The notes: generated from the sequence alone by a model not told the origin. A stretch of DNA of 64,000 bases from an uncultured Acidimicrobiaceae bacterium (GCA_963841155.1 CAWJBM010000005.1:264475-328474), one strand, 5' to 3'; positions 6,269-23,726 are shown, counted from the first letter of the stretch. Program-made: numbers and translations.

Positions 6269-6320
6269 TGGTTGCAGTTGGCGGTTAGCCGGGTTTTAGG
6301 TTGCAGTGTTAGGTTGCAGT
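6269..6320 (+). promoter_or_regulatory. Cluster of three (T)AGGTTGCAG repeats, putative integrase arm-type binding sites
   Basis: 'tggttgcagt' 6269-6278, 'taggttgcagt' 6297-6307 and 'taggttgcagt' 6310-6320, about 110-160 bp inside the left att repeat. The same 9-mer recurs at 8043 and 23583. Confidence 0.45.
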
Positions 6321-6324
6321 TCAG

Positions 6325-6359
6325 GCAAAACAAAACCCCCAGCCTCGAAAGACTGGGGG
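6325..6359 (-). terminator. Rho-independent-type terminator for the int operon (minus strand)
   Basis: 7-bp GC stem 'cccccag'/'ctggggg' (6336-6342 / 6353-6359). On the minus strand it is followed by 'ttttgttttg'. It lies just downstream of ORF 6387-6800. Confidence 0.6.
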
Positions 6360-6386
6360 CTTGCCGGGAAGGCTTGGAGATCTTGA

Positions 6387-7927: not shown

Positions 7928-8042
7928 CTCTAGCCTTCCCTTGACTCTGACCTTTGCCACTCCCCTGCCGCAACGCGAGTCTACAGGCAAGCGCGCCCCT
8001 TGTCCACTCGCCCGTTTGTATTGGGCTTTGCCAGTTCGGCTG

Positions 8043-8051
8043 TAGGTTGCA
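8043..8051 (+). promoter_or_regulatory. Additional TAGGTTGCA copy between int and xis
   Basis: 'tgtaggttgcacc' in the 175-nt int-xis spacer. Confidence 0.35.
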
Positions 8052-8101
8052 CCTAGGCTGCCTGTGCCTCAGTGCTAGCAAGCCCTTCGGCCATCCGTCA
8101 G

Positions 8102-8299
8102 TTATGCTACCCACGACTCCTGTCCCTCTAGGAACTGGTGAAGGGCTTTCTTCGACACTAGGTAGCGCCGTCCAAGCCTGCGGCAACCTGGCAACTCGCC
8201 AGAGACAGCTAGTTCGTAGGCGAGTGAGCGGCCAATCCCAAGCAACTTCGCGGTTTCCTCAACGGTGTACGTAAGACGTTCTTTCGTGATAGCCGACAT
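8102..8299 (-). CDS. xis: Excisionase-family / MerR-like helix-turn-helix DNA-binding protein
   Basis: 65 aa. 'YTVEETAKLLGIGRSLAYELAVSGELPGCRRLGRRYLVSKKAL' is typical of the Xis/AlpA-type HTH_17 fold. Sits immediately upstream of int. Confidence 0.75.
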   Translation of the reverse strand: MSAITKERLTYTVEETAKLLGIGRSLAYELAVSGELPGCRRLGRRYLVSKKALHQFLEGQESWVA

Positions 8300-8802
8300 G
8301 GCAGATCCAATCGTTCGTAGTCATTCGGAACGACTGCGCCACGCAATGTCAGTATTCGTGGGTTCTGCCAGTCGGGTCAGTTGCCCAAAATACCTCCGGC
8401 AACCGCCAACACACAAGATATCACACCGGGACCGGCGCCGTCAACGGGTGCCCCGCCCAACGTTGCCTTTCCCATCATCGCTCACGCCCAACTGACGTTT
8501 TGCCTTATCAGAGCCGGTATATGCCTGTATAGACAGATTTGAGGCCTGAGATGCATAGCACTATAGTGTGTGGCACTCCATAGCTATTGCCGTAGCGCCG
8601 AAACCGACTTGCGTTTTACCTGCTCAGAGGGGTGCTTGCTGGTAGAAATTGAGTCCCTCGGTGTGTAATACTTACCTGCGTACCCGTGCTCCGAGAGTCA
8701 ATCAGTGCAGTGCCTACCGCGCTCGTGCGAGTTGATCGGCTATCGAGGGTGCCGTTGTTCCGCACGCCGCCGGTCCCCGTCAGCATCGGTTAGGAGAACA
8801 AG

Positions 8803-9972
8803 ATGTTAGATCTAGATGATGCTTGGGTGGACGTCGAGCTTGAGGCTGAGCAGGCGATGTGGGATGCGCCACACACGTCATGGGATGCCGTCAACACACG
8901 GTGGGCGCTGGAAGGTCTGTTGGATGACCCGCCGCCGGTGTACTTGAGCCGAACAGATGGCGTACTACTGCTGTACAAGGGGAAGGTTTCTGACATCCAC
9001 GGTGAGCCGGAGGCGTGCAAAGGCTGGTTCGCCTGCTATGCGGCGACTGACGTCCTCGCCCGTGGAGACGGTGTCGTCTACGTGGACTTCGAGGACAGCA
9101 TCAGAGGAATCCTCGGGCGGATGCGGAGTCTTGGCGTTTCAGACGAAGTCCTGCTAGACGGCTTCTCGTATGTCGGACCCACGGAGGCCTTGCAATCAGC
9201 AGCCGTCGAAGGCGGAAAGGACACGAGGCTCAGCTTCGAGAGGACTCTCAGGGTGTTAAGTCGGCCAGTCGGGCTGGTCGTGCTCGACGGGGTCACGCAG
9301 GCGATCGCCAATCAGATGATGGGTTCCTCGAACAGCAATGATGACATCGCAGCTTTCTACCGGGACATGCCGAGGATGATTGTCCACGATGAGAACTGTG
9401 CGGTACTGCTCGTGGACCACGTCACCAAGGACGCTGGCAATCCACGGTTCGCCATCGGCGGGATGATGAAGCTCGCCGCGGTGGACGGCGCATCGTTCCA
9501 AGCCGAAGTTAAGGTGCCGTTCGGCCGTGGGCGGAATGGCCTCGTCCTCATCAAGGTCGCGAAGGACAGACCCGGCTACGTCCGTGAGCATGGCGGTGAG
9601 ACTGATGGCCTCCTACAGCAGATTGCGGACATGCACCTCGAATCCGATGCTGAGACGGGTGCGGTCACGGTTCGGCTTGAGCCACCCATCGACGATGCTG
9701 GACTGCTCCGGATTCGCATGGGCATCGTCTGTCGAGCGTTGCAGAACAACGCCCTGCTCAACGTCCCAGACCCTGGTCTCTCGCTTACTAAGCTGCGGGG
9801 CGTCCTTCGTGGCTGCGGTAACGACAAGAAGGACGAGGTCGTTAAGGAACTGGTTCGGCGCAAGTACGTCCGAGTCGAGGTCCAGGGGATTGGCAAGGCG
9901 ACGCTGCACTTCCTCATAGACCCTCAGCTAGACATCTTGGCGGCACAGATGGCCGAGTTTCCACCTCGATAA
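8803..9972 (+). CDS. RecA-fold ATPase of the AAA_25/RepA-like type (island replication/maintenance), atypical P-loop
   Basis: 389 aa. P-loop-like 'GEPEACKGW', Walker-B-like 'GLVVLDGV' and 'LLVDHVTKD' resemble plasmid RepA/AAA_25 proteins. RBS 'aggag' upstream. Confidence 0.6.
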   Translation: MLDLDDAWVDVELEAEQAMWDAPHTSWDAVNTRWALEGLLDDPPPVYLSRTDGVLLLYKGKVSDIHGEPEACKGWFACYAATDVLARGDGVVYVDFEDSIRGILGRMRSLGVSDEVLLDGFSYVGPTEALQSAAVEGGKDTRLSFERTLRVLSRPVGLVVLDGVTQAIANQMMGSSNSNDDIAAFYRDMPRMIVHDENCAVLLVDHVTKDAGNPRFAIGGMMKLAAVDGASFQAEVKVPFGRGRNGLVLIKVAKDRPGYVREHGGETDGLLQQIADMHLESDAETGAVTVRLEPPIDDAGLLRIRMGIVCRALQNNALLNVPDPGLSLTKLRGVLRGCGNDKKDEVVKELVRRKYVRVEVQGIGKATLHFLIDPQLDILAAQMAEFPPR

Positions 9973-10039
9973 GGCTACCCTGCCACATATGTGATATTTC
10001 ATCTAGAACCTATGAAGAGTGGTTTGCGACCTGCTCTTG

Positions 10040-10076
10040 ACCCTGCCTGCCCTAGACAGAGTCTAGGGGGCAGGGT
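10040..10076 (+). terminator. Strong hairpin downstream of the RepA-like gene
   Basis: 16 paired bases ('accctgcc..ccctagac' / 'gtctagggggcagggt') with a 2-nt bulge and 3-nt loop, followed by 'tggttgatt'. Weak T tract. Confidence 0.45.
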
Positions 10077-10424
10077 TGGTTGATTAGATGCACATATGAC
10101 AGATCCACTATTTTAGGGTTGCTACGCAGAAGGGTGAGTCTCGGACGCGAGACTGGTATAAAGCGTGGGTTCTCGCCACCCACAATGTCAGCAAGCCATC
10201 AAGCTACCCATAGACTAGCAGATGTATGGGGGGGCGGGTCAAACCCCTATGACCTTGTTGCAAATGTCACCCGCGCCTCAGCAGACAATTTGTACGGGTT
10301 ATTGAGCCTCAACGTTCAATAATCGGTACGGTGTAGCACATAAGTCGACGACGGCTCCGCTTGTACACAGCCAGAGGCCGTCCTTCTGGCAACCCTCGCG
10401 TATCATCTCACCAGGGAGGACGCC

Positions 10425-10601
10425 ATGCCCCGTCGCCGATCACTCACGAGCAACCTCTACCGGGCCGCACGGCTCAGCAACAACGTCCGGGCCGCCTCAC
10501 GTGCTCCAGGCGCCTACGCGAAGCGCGTGGTGCGTCGGAAGACCTACGGCAAGTCCATGGGCGCCACCGGACGGTTTCTGAGGATCTTCGGACTCAAGTA
10601 A
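10425..10601 (+). CDS. 58-aa highly basic small protein, unknown function
   Basis: ATG preceded by 'agggagga' at -5 to -11. Translation 'MPRRRSLTSNLYRAARLSNNVRAASRAPGAYAKRVVRRKTYGKSMGATGRFLRIFGLK'. Below the ORF-track length cut-off. Confidence 0.5.
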   Translation: MPRRRSLTSNLYRAARLSNNVRAASRAPGAYAKRVVRRKTYGKSMGATGRFLRIFGLK

Positions 10602-10611
10602 GGAGGCGGCT

Positions 10612-10758
10612 GTGGAGATCAGATGCGCCGAGTGCGGTTGTGTCGTCGACCGAGGCGTCCGCGTCACTCCCTGCGGCGATCCGGAGTGTTGCTGCAAAGA
10701 GCTTCCGGTTCGTGGGGGCGACAAGGATCAGGCACGCGAGACAGGGCGGATTAAGTAG
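10612..10758 (+). CDS. 48-aa seven-cysteine (zinc-ribbon-like) micro-protein
   Basis: GTG start 4-5 nt after 'aggagg', which overlaps the upstream stop. Translation 'VEIRCAECGCVVDRGVRVTPCGDPECCCKELPV...'. Confidence 0.4.
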   Translation: MEIRCAECGCVVDRGVRVTPCGDPECCCKELPVRGGDKDQARETGRIK

Positions 10759-10917
10759 GCGGCGCTCTGGCGGACCTGCACCCGGGGCTACGGTATCTCG
10801 CCCCCAGACCCGGGTGCCGGCTGAGAGCGACTTTACTACCAGTTCGCTCCGGATGTTCGTGGACGGTGTAACCACTCCCGGTGCTCAAGGTGACGGCGCG
10901 AGGGACCGATGAAATGA

Positions 10918-10972
10918 GTGGGTGCACGACCTCAACTTGCCTGCGAGGGTGAGCAGCGGGTCGTGCACCCAC
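10918..10972. repeat. 14-bp perfect inverted repeat (possible bidirectional terminator or protein-binding site)
   Basis: 'gtgggtgcacgacc' 10918-10931 and 'ggtcgtgcacccac' 10959-10972, between convergent small ORFs. Confidence 0.4.
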
Positions 10973-11093
10973 CCGTTTAAGTATCCCGCGGGACCGGGCA
11001 TGGGTGCGGCAGAGTTTCGGATCGCAACGTGAAGCGGGTGCACGCGCTCGCCTGGCTCTAATAGCCCCGCTACCTTCAGCCTCGCGGAAGATT

Positions 11094-11330
11094 TCAGGGG
11101 CTTAGAAACGATCTGCGACCAGGGATTTCGCGCCGCCCCAACTCCCTCAACGCCCGCACGAGCTGACTGAGGATCGCGAGCGCCCGCTCCCGACTGAGCC
11201 CGCTTGCGGCCTGCGGGGGGAGCATGGCGATCGAGCGACGGAGCACCTCGGCTTCCTCCGGCGACAGGTCGGCCACGTTCCTACAGTACCGAACGTGTGT
11301 TCGACGCGCTAGGTGAATTCGGAGCCGCAC
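11094..11330 (-). CDS. Hypothetical 78-aa protein (weak call)
   Basis: ORF lying between two ~37-bp direct repeats. No recognisable motif. Confidence 0.3.
   Translation of the reverse strand: MRLRIHLARRTHVRYCRNVADLSPEEAEVLRRSIAMLPPQAASGLSRERALAILSQLVRALRELGRREIPGRRSFLSP
11098..11134 (+). repeat. Imperfect direct repeat, copy 1
   Basis: 'gggcttagaaacgatctgcgaccagggatttcgcgcc'. About 31/37 identical to 11357-11393. Confidence 0.5.
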
Positions 11331-11356
11331 CTCTACCCCTCGACGACGGCTTTACC

Positions 11357-11393
11357 GGGCTTAGAAACGACCTGCGAACAGGACCTTCGCGGC
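11357..11393 (+). repeat. Imperfect direct repeat, copy 2 (70 nt upstream of the TIGR04255 gene)
   Basis: 'gggcttagaaacgacctgcgaacaggaccttcgcggc'. Confidence 0.5.
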
Positions 11394-11462
11394 TCAGTTC
11401 GCAGATCGGCTCGCTGCTGTTGGCTGCGCCACTACGCGATTACGAAAGCATGACTCCCTCAA

Positions 11463-12329
11463 GTGGGAGAAGCGCCTAACATAATCCCTGCCGTGGCCGA
11501 TCCACTCGTACGTCCTGCTCACCTTGCCGATTATGAGAACCCTCCCATCAGGGAAGCTGCTGTAGGCGTTGAGTTCACGCGGCTACTGGGCCTTCGTCAG
11601 GCACACTTAGGTCTCTACTGGGAACGCATACGGTCCGACTATCCGGTTGCCGAGGACTATCCCGCGCTTCCGCCAACTCAGGATTCCCCCGTTCCGATTC
11701 TCATGCCCGCGTTTCAGTTGAATCTTGGAGGCACTATACCGCCCCAGCGGGCCATTTTTGCCTCGATGGAAAAGGATCGACTCGTTCAGGTACAAAACGA
11801 CCGTTTCGTTATTAACTGGCGAGGCCCTGGAGAGACCTATCCACGCTTTGATGCCCTCCGCGAACGCTTTAAGACTCTGTGGCTTGACTTCTCGGAATTT
11901 GTCACCGAAGAAGGCGTCGGTTTAATAGTGCCATCGCGCGTGGAAATAGCCTATGTAAATCACATAATGAAGGACTCTCCTGTGGAGTTCCTGAACTTCG
12001 CAGAACAATTTGCGGTCTCGGCACCTGGAGTCGGATCCAAACCGTCAGACGTTCAGGTAATGCTTCGATACACGATCAACGTCGGCGACGGTCAGGAGGG
12101 CTCGCTTCAAGTTGCAGTCAATCGGCCCGTTCTTACACCATTTGCAGTCAGTCAGCTAATTGGCGGTTGGGTACTCACCCTCGTTTTTCGTGCGCCGATT
12201 CCGGATCCAACAGCGCCAGAGGCGGTTTATCCATTACTGGATCGTGGTAGAGAAGTTATCGACCAGACCTTCGAGGACTTGACACGACTTGATGTCCAAC
12301 GCGATGAATGGAAGAAGAAAGTTGTCTGA
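11463..12329 (+). CDS. TIGR04255-family protein (uncharacterised, sporadically distributed family)
   Basis: 288 aa. N-terminal signature 'YENPPIREAAVGVEFTRL...AHLGLYWERIRSDYP' matches my memory of TIGR04255 proteins ('Y.NPPI.EAV..v.F', 'hlG.fw'). Confidence 0.65.
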   Translation: MGEAPNIIPAVADPLVRPAHLADYENPPIREAAVGVEFTRLLGLRQAHLGLYWERIRSDYPVAEDYPALPPTQDSPVPILMPAFQLNLGGTIPPQRAIFASMEKDRLVQVQNDRFVINWRGPGETYPRFDALRERFKTLWLDFSEFVTEEGVGLIVPSRVEIAYVNHIMKDSPVEFLNFAEQFAVSAPGVGSKPSDVQVMLRYTINVGDGQEGSLQVAVNRPVLTPFAVSQLIGGWVLTLVFRAPIPDPTAPEAVYPLLDRGREVIDQTFEDLTRLDVQRDEWKKKVV

Positions 12330-12807
12330 GATAACAGCGTTCTATTCGCCTGCTCTGCTGCAATCGTGGCAGGTTGCCACATCGGCTTCGCCGAGCGTGG
12401 TCATCGAACCATGGAGTCCGGAACACGCGCCAAACTGGCTGGGAGAGGTCGCGACCAGACTCAGTGAGCTAGAGCAGCTGGCTGATGGCTGGGATGGTCA
12501 CGGCGCTCTCGCTCCGACCAGTGACGTGCTCGTCGATTCCTTCAGCGAATTCGGCTCGATTATTCCGAGTGTCGCTCCTGAGCCGGCAATTTTTCCGACA
12601 ACCGTAGGCGGCGTCCAGTTCGAGTGGACAGTCGGAGACATCCACGTTGAACTCGAATACCTACCAGGCGGTGTCGTCGACGGATGGGCAGGCGATTCAC
12701 ACGGTCAAGAATGCTGGCACGGCGCCATGGCCGAGATCGGGTCCGCAGTATCTCCGTGGTTGGAGCGATTGTCGCGGTTCGTCCTCGTCAGAGATTTAGG
12801 TTTGTAA
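12292..12807 (+). CDS. Hypothetical protein, second gene of the TIGR04255 operon
   Basis: About 171 aa. Overlaps the upstream gene by 26-38 nt depending on start (ATG 12292 or 12304). Motif 'LEQLADGWDGHGALAP ... FPTTVGGVQFEW'. Confidence 0.55.
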   Translation: MSNAMNGRRKLSEITAFYSPALLQSWQVATSASPSVVIEPWSPEHAPNWLGEVATRLSELEQLADGWDGHGALAPTSDVLVDSFSEFGSIIPSVAPEPAIFPTTVGGVQFEWTVGDIHVELEYLPGGVVDGWAGDSHGQECWHGAMAEIGSAVSPWLERLSRFVLVRDLGL

Positions 12808-12815
12808 GTGCGCTA

Positions 12816-13328
12816 ATGCCGGTACCAGACGATTCAGTAGTGCCGGACTGGGAGCTTCTGATTCGCCGTGTGATCATTAACAAAAACTCTGTGAAGGTGA
12901 ATCAGGACGGACGACTACAGTTCACAACAGCCGGCTTTAAGCTGGACGCTGACGGAGTCTCTGTCTATCGGGCACAGTTGTTGCACCTTCTGGGTCTTAG
13001 GCCGAGTGACACCGTCGGTGGCCGAAAGGATGGCGCTCCCGTTGGGATAATGGTGGGACATGTCCGGGCTGCAGGGGCGGGAGTCGTGCCCGACCCAGTT
13101 CCGCTACCGGTTGCCGTCATCGACCCCGCTCACGCGCTCCTCAAGGTCGACGGCAAGCCCTCTCTCTATCACGTGCTTGAAAGAGCATTCATCCTCTCGC
13201 GCACGGTGGTGGTGCAGGGCACACCGCCAGAGGTTGTCGTCGTTGAAGTACCTGAACAGGAGAAGGTATCCAGGCCGCGGCGTTTCGGCCGCTTGTGGTT
13301 CCTGCCGCGTCAGCGTCCACGCGAGTAG
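12816..13328 (+). CDS. Hypothetical protein, third gene of the TIGR04255 operon
   Basis: 170 aa from ATG 12816, 8 nt after the upstream stop. 'DWELLIRRVIINKNSVKVNQDGRLQFTTAGFKLDADGVSVYRAQLL'. No family recognised. Confidence 0.55.
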   Translation: MPVPDDSVVPDWELLIRRVIINKNSVKVNQDGRLQFTTAGFKLDADGVSVYRAQLLHLLGLRPSDTVGGRKDGAPVGIMVGHVRAAGAGVVPDPVPLPVAVIDPAHALLKVDGKPSLYHVLERAFILSRTVVVQGTPPEVVVVEVPEQEKVSRPRRFGRLWFLPRQRPRE

Positions 13329-13711
13329 TTCGAAGGGAGTTCCCGACAACAACGTGACTACAACTCCCGGCCAAACTCCGCGAAGGATGGTGAGCTGCAA
13401 AGCCACCTCCACTCAGGTAAACATTACGGGCGGGCGCCGGAGGTCGCGTTGATCCTCGTCAGGGTGCTCGCCGAGGCGTCGGCCACCCACACCGAGCCGT
13501 CCCCCACGGCGAGCCCGGTCGGTTCCGGGCCGACGTGCGAATTCCGAGCCATTCCGTACACCCGTTCCGATCGAATCCGTACACCGATTCCGACGTTTTC
13601 GTACACCCGTTGAGGAGACCCTCCTAGCAGCTGGCGCGAGGTAGCCCCTGCTCGGCAGGCTCCTCGGACAACCCGTCCGAGGAGCAACCGTTGACCAGAC
13701 CCCGTGTCGCC

Positions 13712-15232
13712 ATGCGCAAGATCCGAGATGTCCTCCGGCTGAGCTTCGGTGAAAAGCTCAGCCGCCGCCAGGTGAGTGCCTCGCTCGGCATTCCCGTCAC
13801 CACCGTGTCCGACCACGTCATGCGTGCTGTGGCGGCGGGCTTGTCCTGGCCGCTCCCCGACGAGCTCGACGACCACGGCCTCGAGCAGTTGCTGTTCCCG
13901 CCAGTGGTGCCGAAGGGCATCGTCCGGCCCACTCCGGACTGGAAGTACGTCCACCTCGAGCTGCGGCGAAAGGGCGTGACCCTGCAGCTTCTCTGGCTCG
14001 AGTACCGCGAGGACCATCCCGACGGTTACGGCTACAGCCAGTTCGCCAACCTGTACCGGGCCTTTAGGGGACAAGTCGACGTCGTCATGCGCCAGGAGCA
14101 CCGGGCGGGCGAGAAGCTCTTCGTCGACTTCGCGGGCCAGACGATCCCGATCTACGACCGAAGAACCGGCGAGGTGACACTGCAAGCCGAGCTGTTCGTC
14201 GCCGTCGCCGGGGCGTCGAGCTACCTCTACGCCGAGGCCTTCGCCTCCCAGGAGCTCCTGTACTGGGTGACCGCCCACACCCACGCCTTCGAGTTCATGG
14301 GGGGATGCCACGAGATCGTGGTCTGCGACAACTTGAGATCGGGCGTCACCCGGCCGCACCGCTACGAGCCCGACGTGAACGCCACCTTCCAGGAGATGGC
14401 GGCCCATTACGGCGTCGCGGTCATCCCGACTCGGACCTACAAGGCCCGGGACAAGGCCAAGGCCGAAGCCGGAGTGCTCTTGGCCGAGCGCTGGATAATC
14501 GCCCGGCTGCGCCACAGGCACTTCACCTCGCTCGGCGAGGCCAACGCCGCCATCGCCGAGTGCGTCGATGCCATCAACTCCCGCCCGTTCAAGAAGCTGG
14601 ACGGCTCCCGCAAGATCCTGTTCGAGGCTTTGGACCGCCCGGCGCTCAGGCCACTTCCGCCCGAGCGTTATGAGTTCGCCACCTGGAGGCAGGCCAAGGT
14701 CAACATCGACTACCACATCGAGGCCGACCACCACTACTACTCGGTGCCCTACCAGCTCGTCGGCAAGGTCGTCTACGTGCGCAGCTCCGCCACGACCGTC
14801 GAGGCCCTCTACAGCTCGAAGCGTGTCGCCTCGCACCCCCGCAGCTTCAAGCGTGGGCAGTTCACGACCGATCCGGCCCACATGCCCGAGTCGCACCGGC
14901 GCTATGCGCAGTGGACCCCGAGCCGCATCATCAACTGGGCGAGCGCCACCGGCCCCTCGACCGCGAAGCTGATCGAGGCGCTCATCAGATCACGGCCCCA
15001 TCCCGAGCAGGGCTTCCGCTCCGCGCTCGGCATCATCCGCCTCGCCGATCGCTACGGCACCGAACGCGTCGAGGCGGCGTGTGGCCGGGCACTTCACCTT
15101 CGTGCCTACTCGTATCGAAGCGTGCAGTCGATCCTTGCCCACTCGCTCGACAAACAACCCTTGCCCGAGGCGCGCCCGAATCGTCCCCATCCCCGCCACC
15201 ACAACGTGCGCGGGGCGACCTACTACCAATGA
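13712..15232 (+). CDS. istA: IS21-family transposase IstA
   Basis: N-terminal HTH 'MRKIRDVLRLSFGEKLSRRQVSASLGIPVTTV'. DDE core 'FVDFAG...VVCDNLRSGV...', 'ARDKAKAE'. ATGA overlap with istB. Confidence 0.9.
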   Translation: MRKIRDVLRLSFGEKLSRRQVSASLGIPVTTVSDHVMRAVAAGLSWPLPDELDDHGLEQLLFPPVVPKGIVRPTPDWKYVHLELRRKGVTLQLLWLEYREDHPDGYGYSQFANLYRAFRGQVDVVMRQEHRAGEKLFVDFAGQTIPIYDRRTGEVTLQAELFVAVAGASSYLYAEAFASQELLYWVTAHTHAFEFMGGCHEIVVCDNLRSGVTRPHRYEPDVNATFQEMAAHYGVAVIPTRTYKARDKAKAEAGVLLAERWIIARLRHRHFTSLGEANAAIAECVDAINSRPFKKLDGSRKILFEALDRPALRPLPPERYEFATWRQAKVNIDYHIEADHHYYSVPYQLVGKVVYVRSSATTVEALYSSKRVASHPRSFKRGQFTTDPAHMPESHRRYAQWTPSRIINWASATGPSTAKLIEALIRSRPHPEQGFRSALGIIRLADRYGTERVEAACGRALHLRAYSYRSVQSILAHSLDKQPLPEARPNRPHPRHHNVRGATYYQ

Positions 15233-16002
15233 AAGGAACAGACGTGCTCTCCAACACGACCATCGAGGGCCTGCACACCCTTCGGCTCCAGGCCATGGCC
15301 TCCGGCGTCATCGAACAGCGCGAGCAGCCCGACTACGCCGCGCTCAGTTTCGAGGACCGCCTCGGCCTGCTCGTCGACCGGGAGCTCCTCGCCCGGAGCA
15401 ATAGGCGCCTGACTCGCATGCTCAAGTCCGCGAAGCTCAAGGTGCCCGCGGTGGTCGAGGACCTCGACTTCCGCCGTCCCCGCGGGCTCGAGCGGCAGAC
15501 GGTGCTGCACCTCGCCGAGTGCCACTGGGTGAACCAGCACCAGGCGGTTCTCGTCGTGGGCCCGACCGGGGTCGGAAAGACCTACCTCGCCTGTGCGCTC
15601 GCGCACTGCGCGATCCGTCACGGGCACACGGCGCTCTACCTGCGCGCCCCACGGATGTTCGACGAGCTCGCAATCGCACGCGCGGATGGCCGGCTTGCAC
15701 GGCTCATGGCCAGCTGGGCACGCATTGACGTCCTCGTCATCGACGATTTCCTGATCCGTCCGCTCAACTCCGACCAGGCGGCCGACCTGCTCGAGGTGAT
15801 CGAGGACCGTGCCCAGCTGCACTCGACGCTCGTCACGAGCCAGCTCCCGGTCGCCCACTGGCACGAAGGGATAGGAGACGCCACGATCGCCGACGCCGTG
15901 CTGGACCGGCTGTTGGAGAGGGCGAACCGCATCGAGCTCGTCGGCGAGTCCCTGCGCCGGAGCGAGACGGCGACCGCCGCCAAGCCGAGGAACGCCAAGT
16001 GA
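15229..16002 (+). CDS. istB: IS21-family helper ATPase IstB
   Basis: Walker A 'GPTGVGKTYLA', Walker B 'DVLVIDDF' and a typical N-terminus 'LRLQAMASGVIEQ'. Confidence 0.9.
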   Translation: MKGTDVLSNTTIEGLHTLRLQAMASGVIEQREQPDYAALSFEDRLGLLVDRELLARSNRRLTRMLKSAKLKVPAVVEDLDFRRPRGLERQTVLHLAECHWVNQHQAVLVVGPTGVGKTYLACALAHCAIRHGHTALYLRAPRMFDELAIARADGRLARLMASWARIDVLVIDDFLIRPLNSDQAADLLEVIEDRAQLHSTLVTSQLPVAHWHEGIGDATIADAVLDRLLERANRIELVGESLRRSETATAAKPRNAK

Positions 16003-16096
16003 CCGTCCGAGGATGTTCCACGGTCCGGGTCAGCCCGCCGACGTCCTTCGTCACGCCGGAGTGCCTTCTACGAGGTTCACCTCCAAGCCGAGGTGT

Positions 16097-16429
16097 ATGG
16101 CCGTCCGCGCAGCTATGAACGAACGTCGCGACCACTACCTCGCCCCCGCCACAGACAACGACACCGAGTCGGTGCTCGACGAGGCGATCGACTCGCTCGC
16201 GAGGTTGCGTGCCATGGGAGGGCGGGGCAACGCCGGCGTCGATCTTCACCTTCTCACGAGCTTGATCGACGAGGCGACGAGACGGCTGCGCGGCGCCGTT
16301 GCCCGAGCGCGCGTCCAGGGCTACTCATGGGCGGAGATCGCCGATCTTCTCGGAGTCACCCGGGCGAGCGCGTGGCAGCGCTACGCCGGGCGAAGCGACG
16401 ACCCGACGCCGGTCGAGGACAGGCCATGA
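16097..16429 (+). CDS. Passenger HTH protein inside the IS21 copy
   Basis: About 110 aa. C-terminal 'VQGYSWAEIADLLGVTRASAWQRYAG' is a sigma-70 region-4-like HTH. Lies between istB and the right IR. A 45-codon ORF follows with ATGA overlap. Confidence 0.45.
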   Translation: MAVRAAMNERRDHYLAPATDNDTESVLDEAIDSLARLRAMGGRGNAGVDLHLLTSLIDEATRRLRGAVARARVQGYSWAEIADLLGVTRASAWQRYAGRSDDPTPVEDRP

Positions 16430-16889
16430 ACGGCCGGGTGAGGCTGTTTCTCGTCAGCGAAGTCGAGCCGGATCAGCGCGACATTTCGCCGCGTTCGACG
16501 GCGAGCTCCAGTGCCTGCAAACTATCGATCAAGCACCGCGAAGGAGGTGAGCTAACGGGATAGGCCCCCAAGCGTCGGCCGCTGCGCGGCCTCCGACGCC
16601 CGCGTCCGAAAACGTCGGACTGGGTGTACGGAATCATCGGAATACGCAGCCGACGGGCCTCGTGGCCGGAAACCGCTTGCCCGAGATCCAGGTCGGGTCG
16701 GGTCAGTGGTCGGGGCAGGGCGTGAGTGGAGGCCAGCCGATTGTGCGTCCGGCTCTAGCCGCACGTTGTCCACGACAGGCGCCCACGTTCGCCCACTGTA
16801 GGGTGGACAAGGCGCTCTTCTCTTTGTGGGTCTCGACGATGCCGCATCTGCCCAGCGCTTGCCGACATAGCGATCGCATCTGAAAGTAG

Positions 16890-19800
16890 CTAGCTTCTAC
16901 CGGCTCGGAATGCCTCAGGCCAACCGCCGTGCTGCTCGATCAACTGGTCAATCTGAACCATGACGCGCCCTGTCTCCCTGACACCCGCGACAATCCTTCC
17001 GTAATGTTTGATGTCCGCCTTAGACAGTGTTCGACCCCGGCGATCCTTGAGCCATTTCTCGCAGACTCGATAACCCCCAACCCGGAACTTCCAGACCGCC
17101 TCGTCCACCCCGCCAAAACCGTTACCGCTCGCCCCGGCGATCACATCGAGCCACACGCTACCGTCCGACCAACCCACGCGACCCACTACCGGATTCCTCC
17201 TACCGGTGTATGTGCAGCCTTTGTGGCCAAGCTTCGACGACTCCATAAGGTGCAGCGAAAGAAGTTCCTTGCCGAGCCGAACCAGCTCCTCAAACAGCCT
17301 TCGGTTCTCCGTTACGGGTATTCGTGGAAAGTCTAGCTGAAGAGCTAACCGAAAACGCCGCCTATACTCAGGCGAATTCAAGACGGCATAAACGTATGCA
17401 AACACATCGCCATCAGGAGGCTCTCTCCCGAGCCTTTCGCGAAACACAGCGATATCGAGATTAGAAGTCATTGGCGAAATCCCAGCACCAAAGGCGCCCA
17501 ACCCCCTTGGAACCCTCTGAGGAAAGGAATAGCAGTTAACCGAGCTTGTATTCGATAGAAAAATTACGTCGGCGAACGTTCGCGAAACGAACACGTGCGC
17601 GAAAACAGAATCCTTTACGATCTTCGTGGTCAGCAAGATCGGCGTTCCGTCGACACAAGATTTAAGCTTCGGCACCGCCCGCGTCCAAATCGCAGGATCA
17701 TAGTACGTGAAACGAGTGTCGAAAGGCCTATAAGAGTAGGGCACCACAGCGCTATCACGCAGCGGCCGATTGCTAGGTAAGTCTGCAAACTTCCGACCCG
17801 CCTCGGTCAGTTTATGTCCAGAAGCGATGGCCTCCGACCTCTTGAACTCACGAAGTTTCGCTATCACCTCCTCCGGCGAGAAGGAGACAAGTAGATCATC
17901 ATCCCCAGGCTTGCCGGATACGCTACAGAATCGGAATATGGCAGTCAAACTCGGATATTCACTGAATTCAGGCGTGAGGTCCCCGGCCCATGGGACAAGC
18001 AAGAAATACGGAGCGGTCGGTACGATACTTACAGATGACACTCCTCTCGCTGCGGAGAGCGCGTCATACTTGTACTTTCGTTCACCGACCAGTTCTGAGT
18101 ACTGAACTGCCTTATCGAAGGGTCCCTTCGACACCAAGCTAATAGCGACTCCCTGTAGAATGTCAAAGACGTTTTGATCTCCCACGCCTCTGCTACCAAG
18201 GAAGTCGACGTAACCACTGCCGTGTAGGTTGACAACATGGACGACCGCGTTGTCCATCAAAAGCTGTTCTCTCATTCCTCGGTGTATCCTGCCGGACAGG
18301 TACGTGTTATTGGTGATCATGCCGGATATGCCGAGACCTGACTGCGAAAGTAGGCGTTGCGCAAGCGCAATGAACTTAATGTAATCGTCAGAGAGCGGCT
18401 GGATATTCTTCTCTTCCTGAACGGCTTGCTTGTAGCTCTTGATTAATGCCGTGGCAAAGTTGCCCTTGTTCGCGGATGCTCGTGAATAGGGAGGGTTTCC
18501 GACGACAACCGTGAAGCGGCGGTCCCGCTTGATCTTGCTGACCGCCTCCGCTTCATGAGCAAGGGCCGGAATCGCAAACTCAAACTTCCCCGTGAAGTCG
18601 TAGGGAGGCTCAAGGGAATTCGTCAGGTAGATGCGAGCCCGCTGGTTGCTGCGGAAGCGATAGCCCGTCTCGTAAAGCTTCAACCCTGTCTTGAGGTGCG
18701 CTATCGCGTAGGGGGCCATCAGGAGCTCGTAGCCGTACAGGCGGGGCAGCAGGTGCTCCGGCACGTAGTCGTTCCATAACGTCTGGATCTTCCTCTCGTC
18801 ACACCCATCAGACTTCCACCTCGCGGTGAGCGTCTTGTGAATAACGTCGATTACCTCGACGAGGAAGGTGCCGGTTCCGGTGGCGGGGTCGAGAATCTGG
18901 ACGAAGGCTTGATCCGGGTTGACGCCAGTAGGAATCTGGAGCTCCTTGTGTAGCTTGGCCATCTCACGCCACGTGGTCGTGTCGGCAAGACCGTCCTCAA
19001 GGCCGAACTTTGTACGTAGCATTTCGTCTACAGAACGCACAATGAAGGCGACTACGGGCCGTGGAGTGTAGAAGACTCCTCGACTTACCTTTTGTTTCTT
19101 GTCGTAGGCGGCCAAGAAGTCCTCGTAGAAGTGGATGACAGGGTCCTCGTTAGGGTTCCTGTCCCCGAAGTCCCGAATGACTGCCTCCATGTTGGCGTCG
19201 TCGAGCAGCTCTACCACCTCGCCGACCCCCAACTCGTCGAAATCGATTGCAGGTCCATCAGTCTTCGTCCGCCGACCGCCTGTATAGAGGAAGGTCTCCA
19301 TCAACTCCTTGAGGAACGGATTGGTCATCGGCATCGCGAGAGCCGCGTCGTGCGCACGGTCTGTCTTTGGGTTGGCCACCCGCGCCGAGAGCAAGCCGTA
19401 CGCGATGGTCTGCGCGTACATGTCCGCGAAGCCAGGTTCGTCCAGATCGTGCACGAGAGCCTCGCGGAAAGCCGCCATCAGCTTGGTGAGCCGCCCATTC
19501 TTCGTCTCGATTGCCAGCGCTGTCTGGATGCGGTCTCGAATCGCGCGAGCGAGCACTGCCAAGCGGATCGACAGCTCACGAGAAGTCGTGATGACCTCGC
19601 GGTGTCGGACCGTGAAAGCTGCAGCCCAAGCAGCGCGCCATGACTCCACATTCCTGTCGTCATCGGGCCATGCGAGATCACGCACCAAATGATCGGCTAC
19701 GTCGTCCAGGTGCAGCAACGTATCGAGGTTGTCCCAGCCCAGAACCTTTAGCGTCGGCAGACTTTGTCTGGTCGCGTCCTCGGAAAAGTGTGCAAATGTT

Positions 19801-20192
19801 ATCTGGCGCTCCGAGCCCTCCCCGTAGTTGGAGATGAAGAGCAGATCGTTCACCGCCCACGCGGTGCGCTCCGCCTTATTGGCAGATGCACGCTTCTTGA
19901 GAGCCACCTGGCTGAGAATTCGTCGCAACGCAACTACAGGCAACCGCTTTGGTTCGAACTTGATGAAGAAGATTCCCCAGGGCTGGTTCACGGAAAGCGG
20001 ACGTAAGCGCTTTATCTCCTCGATCTTGGCTGCACTCTTCGCGTCGATCCCGAGTTCCTGGGCTGAGTACTCAAACGTCATCTCCTCGAAGTCAGCCGTA
20101 CCGATCGGCCAATCCATTTCATCGTGCAGAAATCGGAGCAGTTGGGGGAACGTACGAATCCTCTGCAGCTGAGCACGGTAGTTGCCTTGCAT
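16890..20192 (-). CDS. N6-adenine DNA methyltransferase / target-recognition protein of a split type ISP-like R-M system
   Basis: About 1100 aa from 'MQGNYRAQL'. SAM motif I 'ILDPATGTGTFLVEVI', motif IV 'VVVGNPPYS' (gamma-class order) and C-terminal 'LQLDFPRIPV...LGKELLSLHL', typical of type ISP/PglX-like C-terminal domains. Start is 4 nt after the helicase stop. Confidence 0.85.
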   Translation of the reverse strand: MQGNYRAQLQRIRTFPQLLRFLHDEMDWPIGTADFEEMTFEYSAQELGIDAKSAAKIEEIKRLRPLSVNQPWGIFFIKFEPKRLPVVALRRILSQVALKKRASANKAERTAWAVNDLLFISNYGEGSERQITFAHFSEDATRQSLPTLKVLGWDNLDTLLHLDDVADHLVRDLAWPDDDRNVESWRAAWAAAFTVRHREVITTSRELSIRLAVLARAIRDRIQTALAIETKNGRLTKLMAAFREALVHDLDEPGFADMYAQTIAYGLLSARVANPKTDRAHDAALAMPMTNPFLKELMETFLYTGGRRTKTDGPAIDFDELGVGEVVELLDDANMEAVIRDFGDRNPNEDPVIHFYEDFLAAYDKKQKVSRGVFYTPRPVVAFIVRSVDEMLRTKFGLEDGLADTTTWREMAKLHKELQIPTGVNPDQAFVQILDPATGTGTFLVEVIDVIHKTLTARWKSDGCDERKIQTLWNDYVPEHLLPRLYGYELLMAPYAIAHLKTGLKLYETGYRFRSNQRARIYLTNSLEPPYDFTGKFEFAIPALAHEAEAVSKIKRDRRFTVVVGNPPYSRASANKGNFATALIKSYKQAVQEEKNIQPLSDDYIKFIALAQRLLSQSGLGISGMITNNTYLSGRIHRGMREQLLMDNAVVHVVNLHGSGYVDFLGSRGVGDQNVFDILQGVAISLVSKGPFDKAVQYSELVGERKYKYDALSAARGVSSVSIVPTAPYFLLVPWAGDLTPEFSEYPSLTAIFRFCSVSGKPGDDDLLVSFSPEEVIAKLREFKRSEAIASGHKLTEAGRKFADLPSNRPLRDSAVVPYSYRPFDTRFTYYDPAIWTRAVPKLKSCVDGTPILLTTKIVKDSVFAHVFVSRTFADVIFLSNTSSVNCYSFPQRVPRGLGAFGAGISPMTSNLDIAVFRERLGREPPDGDVFAYVYAVLNSPEYRRRFRLALQLDFPRIPVTENRRLFEELVRLGKELLSLHLMESSKLGHKGCTYTGRRNPVVGRVGWSDGSVWLDVIAGASGNGFGGVDEAVWKFRVGGYRVCEKWLKDRRGRTLSKADIKHYGRIVAGVRETGRVMVQIDQLIEQHGGWPEAFRAGRS

Positions 20193-20196
20193 TGCC

Positions 20197-23100
20197 CTAC
20201 CCCTCGTTGAGTTCCATCCAGCACTTGAGCGCTGGCTTTGGCGCGTCGAGCGGGACATCGAGGCGCTTAAGGTAGGTGTTCTTAATGTGCTTCAGCACCG
20301 TGTCCCTCGCGTCCTTGAGGGCGTCCGCACCCGTGACACAACATCGAGGTGTGTTGGGCTTCGAGCGGATGCTCTCCAGGATGTCCCCCGGTACATCAAA
20401 GATTTCGCCGGGGTCAGAATCGCATAGGAACCAACTGGTCGGCCCTGCCTCTAGGGTGAATCTTCCAAGGTCGTGATCGAAGGCTGGCAAGGCGTAACAG
20501 AGGAAGACGCCACGCCTTCCTCGGGTTGGACGCTTCCGACCTGAGAACACCGAGCCCGGTAGGGCGTCGAGCCGGGCAACGAGAGTCTCGTCGTCGTTCA
20601 GTAGAGCCTGATACTCAAGGCGCATGTCCTCGACTGTGGTCTTCGTGCCCTCGTAACGAGCATTGAACTCTCTGAGGGCTTCGTAGTTGTCTTCAGGGGT
20701 CAGGAGCTTCCGACCCTCTATGCCAAAGGTCCTGGAGATCAGAAGCGTCTTCCGGGTGACTTGCGTGTAGAGGGAGAGAATGCCTTTCAGTTCATCGGGA
20801 GGAAGGAAGTTCCAAAACGCAACATGGCCGCGATCTTCGGCGATCTCGGGATGGTCCCTGATCAGAGCGGCCTCGATCACTGGGTCTAAGCGCCGGTCGA
20901 CTCGACCGATGCGTTGCATCAGTCGCACCGGGTTCCAGTGGATGTCGTAGTTGATGAGTCGGGTGGCGTCCTGAAGGTTCAAGCCCTCAGAGAGGAGGTC
21001 CGTGGAGATGAGGACACGAATCTCACTCTTACCCTGTCCAGCGAGAACTGCAGTACTTGACCGGTTGTAATAGGGCGAGAAACGCTTGATGACTTCGGTC
21101 CGGTCTGTCTTCGTGGCACTATCAATCTGGCTCACACCGAGGATGCCAGCGTTGGAGAGCTGACGTTCAAGGTAGCGAGCTGTATCGGCGAACTCTGTGA
21201 AGATGAGAACTTTTCGCCGGGCGAGATCTTTGCTCTTGAGCAAGCGGATCAGCTTCTGGACCTTGTCATCCTGCGCAGGCGTGAATTGCTGCGTGTGCTC
21301 AAGGAACTTAGCGATCTGATCGAGGTCGAGCATAGATTCCTGCAGCATCTCGCTGAGGTTGTACTCATCTGGAGGTAGGTGACGGACATCTTCAAGCAGT
21401 TCGGGCGACACAACGTCTTCATCGGCGTCTTCATCGGCGTCTTCCTCCTCGCCTCCCTCCGGCCAAAGGGTGAGCTGCGAATCGGGGTGATAGCCGATCA
21501 CGGCGGCGTGCTGACGCTTCCAACGGTCAAGACGGCTCTTTTCCGCTTCGGTTTCACTGTGGACCTGCACGAAGGCAAACAGCTTTCGAAGGAGGGTGTC
21601 CAGGGAGCGCTCGAAGGCATATACGGAACTCTCGAAGCGTTTTAGGAACTGGGTTCGGATCAGGCCCACCACCTGCCGCTGGCGGTTTTCTTCGCGTGGA
21701 TCGACGCTGTCGTCCGGGCCGATGTAGTAGGCCAACGGGTAGTACATCGGCAGCGAGAAAAGAGGGTTCTTCTTCTCGAACGCCTGCTCAAAGAGGTCGA
21801 GCACCTGCCCGTAGGACTTCCTCACTGAGTAGTCGGCTACCTGGGGCGGGCGACGCTCCGGGAAGACCGTCGCTGCACCCGTTTCTTGGATCTGGCTGGC
21901 CCGAGCGTAAGCCCGGCTTCGTTGAACGACGAGACTGCGAAAGATCACGTCTCCAGCCAGCACGTCGTGGGCTTCCTCTAGTAAGCCCTCCTGTTGGGCC
22001 TCGGGCGCGTCACCCAGTGAAAGCTGGAGCGTCTTGTCCATGGCCTTGAAGTGCGCGGTCAGGCTGTTCACGCCGAGAGTGCGTGCAAAGTAGGTCTCTT
22101 CGCGGCGGGTGAACAGTTCGGCCATGTGGCGAAAGTCGGAGAGCTGGTTGTTGATCGGCGTAGCTGTCAACATGTAGAGCGTCTTCTCGCGACCGCCGCC
22201 AAGGACGTCGTAGAGACGCCGATAGCGTGAGCGGCGGTCCCCATTTGTATCCGAGTCACCAGTTCGGCCTGGGTTCCGGAAATGATGTGCCTCGTCAATG
22301 ATCACAACGTCGGCAAGCTCGGTGACACGCGCAAACCGCTCTGGGAAGTCTCCCTTGCGATTCAGATCTGTGTGGCTAAAGACAGCTAAGTTGCTGAAAT
22401 CCGCGCCGCCTCCGATGCCACCGATGTGCGGCAACCGGTCCCGCAAGTGAGGTTCCCAGACACTCTCCTTGGCTCCCTTCGGCGCAAACAGGAGCACCCG
22501 CTTGTTCTCGTGCAGCACCAGCCTTTCGATAAGCATCAGGCCAACGAAAGTCTTGCCAAGCCCTACGCCGTCGCAAAGGAAGGCTCCGCCGAATTGTCGG
22601 GCGATCTTCATGAGCGACCCGTAGGCTTCTTTTTGGTAAAGGTCGAGCGCGGGAAACATCTTGGACTGGGTCTCGTCCCATTCCCCAGCCGTCAGCTCGT
22701 GGCCGCGGAAAAACTCGTGCAGCGCTTTCGCGTACACCTCAAATGGTGTGTGCTCCGCTGTGTGACGCGTGATGACGTGGAGAAGGTCCGGGGTGACGTC
22801 CTTGGCTTCGGACCAGTGTTGATCGAACCACGCCTGGAGCTGGGCAACCTCCCGGCTACTCTGGACTTGGATGTTGAGCTCGATGTTCTGGGTCAGCCCG
22901 GGCCGCGTGAAGTTGCTCGATCCCACGAGAGCCTGAGCACCGACCACTTCGAGCCGGGCGCGTGTGATGTAGGCCTTGGCGTGGAACTTCTCTTGGTTGT
23001 ATATCCGGCACTCGATTCGCCCGGTTTGCAGCGCGTGAACGATGGCATCCACGCCCTGGAGGAAGGGATTCTCGTGCTTCTCTTCCTCCAGGCTGACGTC

Positions 23101-23364
23101 AAGCCGCACCTTGGACCGCTTTCGAACTGCCTCCAAGAGCGCCTGCCTCGTCGGCCGGCTGAACTCATCCCCCATGAGGATTCGAATCTTGTCAAGTTTC
23201 TGCCAGTCGCTGTCGAGCTCCAGCAGCGCCCCAATCTCGAAAAACCCTGTGGCAATGTCGAAGCTGGTCGCGATCCCGCACCACTCGCGGAGGTACCTCA
23301 GGCCGGTCCAGCCAGAAATGCTGTTGTCGACGATGAAGAGGTCCCTGCCGGTCCGTTCAGCCAT
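20197..23364 (-). CDS. PLD-family nuclease fused to SNF2/SF2 helicase
   Basis: 1055 aa. N-terminal single HKD motif 'FHAKAYI...LVGSSNFT'. Helicase motif I 'DGVGLGKTF', II 'DEAHHFRN', VI 'QRIGRVDRR'. Confidence 0.85.
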   Translation of the reverse strand: MAERTGRDLFIVDNSISGWTGLRYLREWCGIATSFDIATGFFEIGALLELDSDWQKLDKIRILMGDEFSRPTRQALLEAVRKRSKVRLDVSLEEEKHENPFLQGVDAIVHALQTGRIECRIYNQEKFHAKAYITRARLEVVGAQALVGSSNFTRPGLTQNIELNIQVQSSREVAQLQAWFDQHWSEAKDVTPDLLHVITRHTAEHTPFEVYAKALHEFFRGHELTAGEWDETQSKMFPALDLYQKEAYGSLMKIARQFGGAFLCDGVGLGKTFVGLMLIERLVLHENKRVLLFAPKGAKESVWEPHLRDRLPHIGGIGGGADFSNLAVFSHTDLNRKGDFPERFARVTELADVVIIDEAHHFRNPGRTGDSDTNGDRRSRYRRLYDVLGGGREKTLYMLTATPINNQLSDFRHMAELFTRREETYFARTLGVNSLTAHFKAMDKTLQLSLGDAPEAQQEGLLEEAHDVLAGDVIFRSLVVQRSRAYARASQIQETGAATVFPERRPPQVADYSVRKSYGQVLDLFEQAFEKKNPLFSLPMYYPLAYYIGPDDSVDPREENRQRQVVGLIRTQFLKRFESSVYAFERSLDTLLRKLFAFVQVHSETEAEKSRLDRWKRQHAAVIGYHPDSQLTLWPEGGEEEDADEDADEDVVSPELLEDVRHLPPDEYNLSEMLQESMLDLDQIAKFLEHTQQFTPAQDDKVQKLIRLLKSKDLARRKVLIFTEFADTARYLERQLSNAGILGVSQIDSATKTDRTEVIKRFSPYYNRSSTAVLAGQGKSEIRVLISTDLLSEGLNLQDATRLINYDIHWNPVRLMQRIGRVDRRLDPVIEAALIRDHPEIAEDRGHVAFWNFLPPDELKGILSLYTQVTRKTLLISRTFGIEGRKLLTPEDNYEALREFNARYEGTKTTVEDMRLEYQALLNDDETLVARLDALPGSVFSGRKRPTRGRRGVFLCYALPAFDHDLGRFTLEAGPTSWFLCDSDPGEIFDVPGDILESIRSKPNTPRCCVTGADALKDARDTVLKHIKNTYLKRLDVPLDAPKPALKCWMELNEG

Positions 23365-23582
23365 CCCTTGTCACGATACGTCGCACCCAGTCAGTGGGTG
23401 AGCTTTCCCAGAGCAGCGGCCCTCACGCGCAGTCAACAAGGCAGCGTCCGACTCAAAACCTGGCAACTGCGCCAGACTCAACCAAGTCGTCTTCTTGGGC
23501 GCTTCCCGGCGTCAAAAGGCACAGAAATGGCGGGGTCTGATGCCATCGGTTGAAAGCAACCTTACGAGCGGCCTGGAAGCTG

Positions 23583-23591
23583 TAGGTTGCA
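23583..23591 (+). promoter_or_regulatory. TAGGTTGCA copy about 60 bp inside the right att repeat
   Basis: 'tgtaggttgcagtg'. Same orientation as the copies at 6297, 6310 and 8043. Confidence 0.35.
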
Positions 23592-23649
23592 GTGATGGTT
23601 GTAACAGCCACCATTCTTGGATTGCTGCCCGACAAAAACTGCCTCTGAA

Positions 23650-23726
23650 CTGGTGGGCCGTACAAGACTTGAACTTGTGACCTCTTGCGTGTCATGCAAG
23701 CGCGCTACCAGGCTGCGCCAACGGCC
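23650..23726 (-). tRNA. tRNA-Val (anticodon GAC), CCA-encoded
   Basis: The reverse complement folds by hand. Acceptor GGGCCGT/ACGGCCC, D stem GCGC/GCGC, anticodon stem CTTGC/GCAAG with loop AT-GAC-AC, T stem ACAAG/CTTGT with loop TTCAAGT, discriminator A plus CCA. Confidence 0.9.
23651..23695. repeat. Island att repeat within the intact tRNA-Val
   Basis: Identical to 6117-6161. Confidence 0.85.

Follow-up and report, generated by a model that had tools for sequence, protein, structure and literature searches.

The 64,000-nt stretch of DNA analyzed here (the window), from an uncultured Acidimicrobiaceae bacterium (GCA_963841155.1 CAWJBM010000005.1:264475-328474), contains two adjacent minus-strand genes, here called A and B, which we examined as a candidate restriction-modification system. 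Gene A combines a phospholipase D (PLD) nuclease domain with a superfamily 2 (SF2) ATPase, and gene B an N6-adenine methylase with a target recognition domain (TRD). An initial annotation, made from the sequence alone, had described the pair as a split, Type ISP-like restriction system. All positions are coordinates of the whole window, and the two genes are laid out as follows (aa, amino acids; ORF, open reading frame):

23364..20197, minus strand: gene A, 1055 aa (ORF and translation), predicted motor-nuclease subunit
22813..23190, minus strand: PLD nuclease domain of A, aa 59-184, with HxK at 22975-22983 and GSxN at 22912-22923
20893..22644, minus strand: SF2 ATPase core of A, aa 241-824, comprising RecA1, a long helical insert and RecA2
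20200..20877, minus strand: C-terminal region of A, aa 830-1055, conserved at 59-74%
20190..20205, minus strand: A/B junction, read directly as GAGGGG, the TAG stop, GGCA and the ATG of B
20192..16890, minus strand: gene B, 1100 aa, predicted modification and specificity subunit
19158..20192, minus strand: N-terminal domain of B, aa 1-345, with an alpha/beta part (~1-160) and a helical part (~200-345)
18033..19157, minus strand: gamma-class N6-adenine methylase of B, aa 346-720
19062-19073: motif X of B, FYTP 374-377
18864-18890: motif I of B, DPATGTGTF 435-443
18486-18497: motif IV of B, NPPY 566-569
16959..17822, minus strand: TRD of B (Type_ISP_C), aa 791-1078, with DFPRIP 954-959 at 17316-17333

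Gene A encodes one HKD/PLD nuclease domain followed by a SNF2/RapA-like SF2 ATPase. Pfam assigned PLDc_2 to aa 59-184 (E 2e-13), with an additional RE_NgoFVII match in the PLD domain (E 9e-6), ResIII to aa 241-404 (spanning GLGKT, DEAH, and TATP), and Helicase_C to aa 701-824 (E 6e-19, spanning QRIGRVDR); the Pfam matches of A, like those of B, lie far beyond chance. The HKD motif is present in a single copy (HAK 128-130, GSSN 148-151), RecA1 carries GLGKT 268-272, DEAH 357-360, and TATP 400-403, and RecA2 carries QRIGRVDR 817-824. Every motif quoted in the initial annotation for a single-HKD PLD domain joined to an SF2 motor (GKT, DEAH, QRIGRVDR) was therefore recovered, in agreement with Pfam. 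Residues H128, K130, G148, S149, S150, and N151 were unchanged in 18/18 homologs, among which the ATPase motifs GKT, DEAH, and QxxGRxxR were also invariant. The Pfam SNF2 domain scored 21.8 bits against a cut-off of 24.9, just under threshold, so the label "SNF2-like" derives from the best relatives of A. These were DrmD, HmaA, and BrxH in PADLOC, RapA and DrmD in NCBIfam, and RapA in PDB; by PDB sequence and profile searches, the closest solved relatives of the motor were RapA Swi2/Snf2 proteins. The top PADLOC model was "HKD+Snf2" C3a139 (192 bits), with DrmD at 114 bits; C3a139 denotes a gene cluster found beside type III CRISPR loci (PMC6546367). The C-terminal region (aa 830-1055) had no Pfam match.

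PLD enzymes with a single HKD motif, such as Nuc, BfiI, and SauUSI, need to dimerize to form an active site. As A carries one HKD motif, two A protomers would therefore have to pair to build an active site. MtsD, the effector of the MANTIS system, is a dimer in its structure (preprint 10.64898/2026.09.23.753747).

Homologs of A, named "helicase-related protein" or "phospholipase D-like domain-containing protein" by NCBI, number in the thousands in the database and align over their full length at ~65-70% identity. In the genome collection, at least 581 species representatives have the gene, and hundreds of metagenome contigs carry the family. Its taxon range includes Acidimicrobiia, Acidobacteriota, Alpha-, Beta-, and Gammaproteobacteria, Gemmatimonadota, Chloroflexota, Spirochaetota, and Planctomycetota, among others. 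Relatives in the phage and plasmid collections were all distant (25-29% identity) and lay inside other methylase-containing operons. On the Lactococcus plasmid pUCCL633B (L081, 6926-16334), for instance, a PLD + SNF2 protein with 26% identity to A heads a different operon, encoding a helicase-related protein, DUF4391, a site-specific DNA methyltransferase, two more methyltransferase ORFs, and a DEAD/DEAH helicase. In this plasmid, the PLD-SNF2 module is reused with another methylase system.

Gene B begins, as initially annotated, 4 nt after A and encodes 1100 aa (~1100 in that annotation) from the ATG at 20192, a biologically sensible start that we preferred over an in-frame upstream ATG at 20258. 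In the protein, an N-terminal domain specific to this family is followed by a gamma-class N6-adenine methylase and then by a TRD of the Type ISP kind. Pfam matched N6_Mtase/Eco57I at aa 432-657 and Type_ISP_C (PF18135) at aa 791-1078 (E 1.3e-50), and the gamma-class assignment follows from the motif order X-I-IV with the TRD at the C-terminus. The gamma-class motifs (DPATGTGTFL, NPPY) and the DFPRIP signature reported initially were all found; motif I and NPPY were at least 90% conserved across homologs. The methylase and TRD matched the PDB sequences of LlaBIII (E 3e-20), LlaGI (E 5e-17) (4xqk, 5ffj), and DrdV (7lo5, E 2e-19). NCBI names the homologs "type ISP restriction/modification enzyme"; the top PADLOC models were REase_MTase_IIG, at 509 bits (PDLC03610) and 245 bits.

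The N-terminal domain of B (aa 1-345) had no Pfam match, MmeI_N-type models included, and no PDB sequence match. An AlphaFold2 (AF2) model of this region, of medium confidence (predicted local distance difference test (pLDDT) 71), comprised an alpha/beta part and then a helical part. Searched against PDB with Foldseek, the model returned nothing at E ≤ 0.001; diphtheria toxin ranked on top as noise, and DrdV and LlaGI appeared as weak, sub-significant matches, which we assume to fall in the modelled helical region before the methylase. Seven charged residues were invariant (E46, K99, R101, D116, R129, D154, and D157); in the model, they are not arranged as D...(D/E)xK along consecutive strands. 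Among the 150 best relatives, the domain occurred only at the N-terminus of proteins of ~1100-1350 aa with the architecture of B, and no A-B fusion (≥2000 aa) was found. The domain ranks among the best-conserved parts of B. We consider it a likely docking or coupler region for A.

C-terminal extensions of ~170-210 aa were found in 48 of the 120 closest B homologs (e.g. P0125, P0126, and P0162). An intact Ser-Lys dyad of the LexA/UmuD-type Peptidase_S24 (G[KR]SMEP...VKRY) was present in 36 of these 48, and in some S24-fused homologs a VAAG motif resembling a cleavage site lay 38 residues upstream. The remaining 12 lacked the dyad motif, and several of them (P0122, P0173) carried a different extension of ~200 aa with no Pfam match. 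These sequence motifs suggest that self-cleavage, possibly linked to RecA/SOS, could control the specificity subunit in some family members. In the window, the sequence past the B stop, searched for a lost S24 or other extension, gave a weak 28-codon alignment and no domain remnant.

The two genes are tightly joined. The TAG stop of A (20199-20197) is followed by GGCA and then the ATG of B, a gap of exactly 4 nt, and a Shine-Dalgarno-like GAGGGG (20205-20200) lies 8 nt upstream of B within the last codons of A. This site inside the end of A, together with the 4-nt gap, suggests that A and B are translationally coupled. We assessed their linkage in both directions. In the forward sample (80 genome loci returned with A, from the at least 581 carrying species representatives), a B homolog lay directly downstream of A on the same strand in 77/80 loci, from Acidimicrobiia, Acidobacteriota, Pseudomonadota, Gemmatimonadota, Chloroflexota, Spirochaetota, and others. 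Of the three A loci without B, two are on contigs that stop at A, and in the third (L072), A is followed by 1.3 kb of non-coding DNA. In the reverse sample (80 metagenome loci retrieved by the B N-terminal domain, 71 with room upstream), A preceded B in the same orientation in 70/71 evaluable loci. The gap between the genes was 3-60 nt in most related loci. Co-occurrence mapping thus bears out the functional linkage assumed in the initial annotation, and the helicase gene is not commonly found without the methylase gene. All-against-all clustering of the flanking ORFs revealed no third conserved gene, other families reaching at most 7/80 loci. The large neighbouring genes of some loci, for a reverse transcriptase-like protein, a superfamily 1 helicase, and a KAP NTPase, are lineage-specific defence-island neighbours. 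Near-obligate linkage in both directions therefore defines a two-gene module.

A minority of related loci have additional genes inserted between A and B, whose products include Fic/DOC, RhuM with Fic, a YhcG/DUF1016 PDDEXK nuclease, NYN, and KilA-N proteins, and further inserts encode an SDH-protease-like protein, and Sacsin/NOV_C with an AAA_21 ATPase (the latter on the opposite strand). The inserts lie at 3716-4378 (L033), 4509-5558 (L129), 3801-4919 (L091), 4621-5976 (L154), 4009-4845 (L104), 13261-14283 (L068), and 13359-18297 (L044).

Conservation differed markedly along B. Compared with 119 homologs in 50-residue windows, aa 1-550 were mostly ~0.7-0.8 identical (0.52 in the first 50 residues), aa 650-950 only 0.27-0.39, and aa 950-1100 0.5-0.6, whereas A was 0.5-0.8 identical along its whole length. 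Such a combination of a constant enzymatic chassis and a specificity domain that is swapped or diversifies is characteristic of the specificity subunits of restriction-modification systems. In the closest genomic relative (L001), identity was 88% for A, 82% for the B N-terminal domain, and 36% for the TRD. DNA similarity between the window and this locus (79%) extends across A into B, covering its first half, and ends exactly at NPPY, at 18484 (B residue 569). Because similarity ends at NPPY and the TRD half is only 36% identical, we interpret this point as a recombination boundary for specificity swapping. A deeper divergence was found in other Acidimicrobiales loci (L002, L003, L004, L006, L007, L020, L022, and others), where A was 65-69% identical and the adjacent B ~33%. 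These diverged B proteins have the same architecture (N-terminal domain, methylase, and Type_ISP_C), with identity in the N-terminal domain also down to ~33%. One conserved motor type is thus paired with two deeply diverged B lineages.

The pair is located in a mobile element, with the following features:

6114..23700: integrative island of ~17.5 kb, bounded by direct repeats and holding the integrase, IS21, A, and B
6114-6165 and 23649-23700: 52-nt direct repeats of the 3' part of tRNA-Val, 96% identity
23651..23727, minus strand: tRNA-Val(GAC) (ARAGORN), the island integration site
6797-7990, minus strand: tyrosine integrase (Pfam), at the far end of the island
13691-16002, plus strand: IS21 istA/istB (Pfam), istA with rve/Mu-transposase C domains

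A and B lie immediately downstream of tRNA-Val(GAC), and GC content is 0.55-0.60 between the repeats vs 0.66-0.69 outside. The tRNA-derived repeats, integrase, and low GC content identify the pair as cargo of an integrative island. The IS21 insertion lies ~0.9 kb downstream of the B stop; the island further contains an AAA_25/primase-like gene and small uncharacterised ORFs. The other island ORFs scanned matched no defence model, except for a partial match of a 172-aa ORF (12289-12807, plus strand) to the PADLOC candidate PDC-M32A (E 3e-12, profile positions 257-327 of 375), which may be a gene fragment. A sigma-70 promoter scan from the tRNA to A, uninformative for a high-GC host, returned none.

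We propose that A and B probably form a self-contained, two-subunit, ATP-dependent restriction-modification system on a mobile island, a reading drawn from sequence comparison. The motifs of both proteins are intact, the genes are linked, the TRD is hypervariable, a third conserved gene is absent, and the location is a mobile island; all of these are computed observations. The architecture of A matches that of the PLD + SF2 restriction effectors SauUSI and MtsD (preprint 10.64898/2026.09.23.753747; PMC12839542). The TRD of B would read a short, probably asymmetric DNA sequence, at which the gamma-class methylase would place N6-methyladenine (m6A), probably restricted to a single strand in the manner of LlaGI/LlaBIII and the MmeI/DrdV family. 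Such one-strand methylation of an asymmetric site is expected because the methylase and TRD of B are homologous to those of LlaBIII, LlaGI, and DrdV. On an unmodified site, B would recruit or activate A, most likely via the conserved B N-terminal domain. A would then spend ATP to translocate along double-stranded DNA, and the single-HKD PLD domains of two A protomers would form one active site and cut away from the recognition site, possibly depending on site orientation. This pairing could involve either a constitutive A dimer loaded by B or two protomers meeting at collision.

Embedded genes similar to those found between A and B are well known in Type I hsd operons. By analogy, the Fic/DOC, RhuM, YhcG/DUF1016, NYN, and KilA-N genes found between A and B in related loci may be regarded as supporting context for a restriction-modification system.

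Several points weigh against this proposal. MANTIS needs a loader and a cofactor, so a two-protein system may be incomplete or need host factors. The contact between A and B is one that we infer, and a simple co-evolution argument for it is weakened by the diverged Acidimicrobiales loci, in which A was kept at 65-69% while the B N-terminal domain fell to ~33%. This domain, to which no fold could be assigned, may also hide a cryptic nuclease or serve another function. Finally, the AF2 model of full-length A had a mean pLDDT of 51, with the PLD domain below 40, and its confidence in the C-terminal region of A was insufficient for interpretation.

A more far-reaching version is possible, and we put it forward tentatively: the pair would represent a distinct, widespread ATP-dependent class in which an ISP-type subunit directly loads a SNF2-PLD motor without an AAA+ loader such as the one needed by MANTIS. 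Cutting would require two single-HKD motors to meet, a condition that could in itself impose a two-site or orientation rule, and the S24 fusions (in about one third of the closest members) could tie restriction, or its alleviation, to RecA/SOS.

Among the alternatives, the one that survives best, though we consider it unlikely, is a BREX-, DISARM-, or MANTIS-like exclusion system needing host or unlinked factors, in which A is loaded by another ATPase or blocks replication without collision-type cleavage. It draws on the nearest named relatives of A (DrmD, HmaA, BrxH, and the Gao_RL PLD-helicase) and on MANTIS, whose PLD-SF2 effector can need MtsA and MtsB and can be inactive alone in vitro (preprint 10.64898/2026.09.23.753747). 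However, DUF499, DUF3870, and DUF1998 were not found in the scanned island ORFs, and each flanking family was confined to at most 7/80 related loci. The DISARM and Gao_RL models scored far under their cut-offs (137.5 vs 610 and 144 vs 1100, respectively). Moreover, B, unlike the alpha-class MtsC, belongs to the gamma class and has an ISP-type TRD, an arrangement able to bind DNA unaided in LlaGI and DrdV.

Slightly less probable still is that B is an autonomous Type IIG/IIL enzyme (MmeI/DrdV-like) whose N-terminal domain hides a cryptic nuclease, A being an accessory or second-line effector and not the nuclease of the system. The best PADLOC models of B (REase_MTase_IIG, 509 and 245 bits), the DrdV match over methylase and TRD, and the ~345 N-terminal residues without a family, located where IIG/IIL enzymes hold their nuclease, all point in this direction. 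Yet this domain had no Pfam, PDB sequence, or significant Foldseek match, and its invariant charges form no D...(D/E)xK pattern in the model. Near-obligate linkage and a 4-nt junction to an intact nuclease-motor also argue that A is integral. That the pair is no restriction system at all, A being a SauUSI-like Type IV nuclease or a repair or remodelling motor beside a regulatory or orphan methylase, is very improbable: SauUSI does share the PLD + SF2 layout, and the ~225-aa C-terminal region of A could be a reader domain, but a self-encoded m6A methylase beside an m6A-dependent nuclease would be suicidal, TRD-confined hypervariability, a mobile island, and embedded Fic/RhuM/YhcG genes fit restriction-modification and not housekeeping, and patchy spread across phyla at ~68% identity fits horizontal transfer.

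Full-text literature searches found no description of the A-B pair and no biochemical characterisation of this architecture, in line with the initial annotation. In PADLOC, one of the comparisons suggested there, B alone was flagged as "Type IIG" (PDLC03610, 509 bits). The pair is thus under-described rather than invisible, and its family has likely been listed before as putative Type IIG genes (REBASE, DefenseFinder). Current tools give a label to B but none to A, so that restriction-modification and defence censuses miscount the family. If two proteins suffice, the pair would be the smallest known combination of a methylase with a PLD-SNF2 effector, a logic common to DISARM class 1 and MANTIS, whose mechanisms are unresolved and for which cutting by MtsD in vitro is still lacking. 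If the proposal is true, such a pair, with its ISP-type subunit binding the DNA, would be easier to reconstitute and could reveal how motors of this type are loaded and what turns a single-HKD nuclease on. The hypervariable TRD would offer many new m6A specificities, and the variants fused to S24 hint that DNA damage may control restriction.

Compared with classical Type I systems, which have separate HsdS, HsdM, and PD-ExK HsdR subunits, methylase and TRD are fused in B and the nuclease is PLD; no hsdS-type gene was found among the island ORFs scanned. CglI and NgoAVII (ATP-dependent Type II) also couple a PLD nuclease to an SF2 translocase, but their nuclease (R) and motor (H/N) subunits are separate, the DNA-binding domain is on the nuclease subunit, and the methylase is C5. 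SauUSI (Type IV) shares PLD and SF2 on one chain and the dimeric single-HKD active site. Its own TRD targets methylated cytosine and it has no methylase, whereas a methylase is obligately linked to A, in which no SRA or DUF3427-type domain was matched by Pfam. The Type IIL/IIG enzymes MmeI and DrdV have a homologous methylase-TRD, with one-strand methylation of asymmetric sites expected by analogy. They are ATP-free, lack a motor partner, and carry their own PD-ExK nuclease in the same chain; here, an ATPase-nuclease gene is obligately linked, and no nuclease was detectable in B (medium-confidence model of the N-terminal domain).

DISARM class 1 likewise combines a SNF2 helicase, a PLD nuclease, and an adenine methylase. 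Its members are DrmA, DrmB, DrmC, DrmD, and DrmMI, whereas PLD and SNF2 are fused in A. Neither DrmA nor DrmB (DUF1998) was found among the scanned island ORFs, which upholds the initial statement that drmA/drmB are absent, and the 80 related loci shared no conserved third gene. Gene A scored 137.5 bits against DrmD NF038317 (cut-off 610), DrmC reached 22.5 (cut-off 133), and the PADLOC DrmMI model 25 bits. In architecture, the closest characterised counterpart of A is MtsD of MANTIS/Gao_RL, an effector combining an N-terminal HKD nuclease with a Swi2/Snf2-type helicase (preprint 10.64898/2026.09.23.753747; PMC12839542). MANTIS/Gao_RL/BREX-related type 2 (MtsA-D) shares with the pair a PLD + SF2 effector working with a specificity-setting N6-adenine methylase. 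However, MANTIS needs the AAA+ loader MtsA and the cofactor MtsB, the latter for methylation, MtsD showed no nuclease activity in vitro, and MtsC is alpha-class with a central TRD (preprint 10.64898/2026.09.23.753747); B, in contrast, belongs to the gamma class, and its ISP-type TRD lies at the C-terminus. The partners DUF499 AAA+ (MtsA) and DUF3870 (MtsB) were found neither in the scanned island ORFs nor in the related loci. The relationship of A to the MtsD-type equivalog NF042964 (NCBIfam) is distant (144 bits vs a cut-off of 1100), and the PADLOC PLD_Helicase model gave 77 bits. Given the absent partner genes and scores far under cut-offs, the pair is neither DISARM nor MANTIS/Gao_RL.

Type ISP enzymes are defined by an Mrr-like nuclease, translocase, gamma-methylase, and TRD, in this order on one chain (PMC3874165). 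Type ISP systems are also characterised by methylation of one strand, a need for head-to-head sites, and cleavage that depends on collision. Like LlaGI and LlaBIII, the pair unites all four functions, from nuclease and SF2 motor to methylase and TRD, and has a gamma-class N6-adenine methylase followed by a TRD of the same family, PF18135. In contrast to their single polypeptide, a stop codon and 4 nt separate two ORFs here, a split shared by 77/80 genome and 70/71 metagenome loci, and the Mrr-type PD-(D/E)xK nuclease is replaced by PLD/HKD in A, with no Pfam match to PD-(D/E)xK families in A or B. The motor of A is SNF2/RapA-like, and its searches did not retrieve the LlaGI/LlaBIII (4xqk, 5ffj) or HsdR structures; B also has an extra conserved N-terminal domain (200-345 aa) that Type ISP enzymes lack. 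Of the description "split type ISP-like", the two genes and the ISP-type methylase-TRD thus stand. Descent from a split Type ISP enzyme is unsupported, since only the methylase-TRD half of B is homologous to LlaGI/LlaBIII, while the motor differs and B has an extra domain. By sequence, the pair is not a member of Type ISP, and A is not a detached ISP motor. Measured against these systems, A and B most likely represent a compact, widespread, uncharacterised system that recombines known restriction-modification modules.

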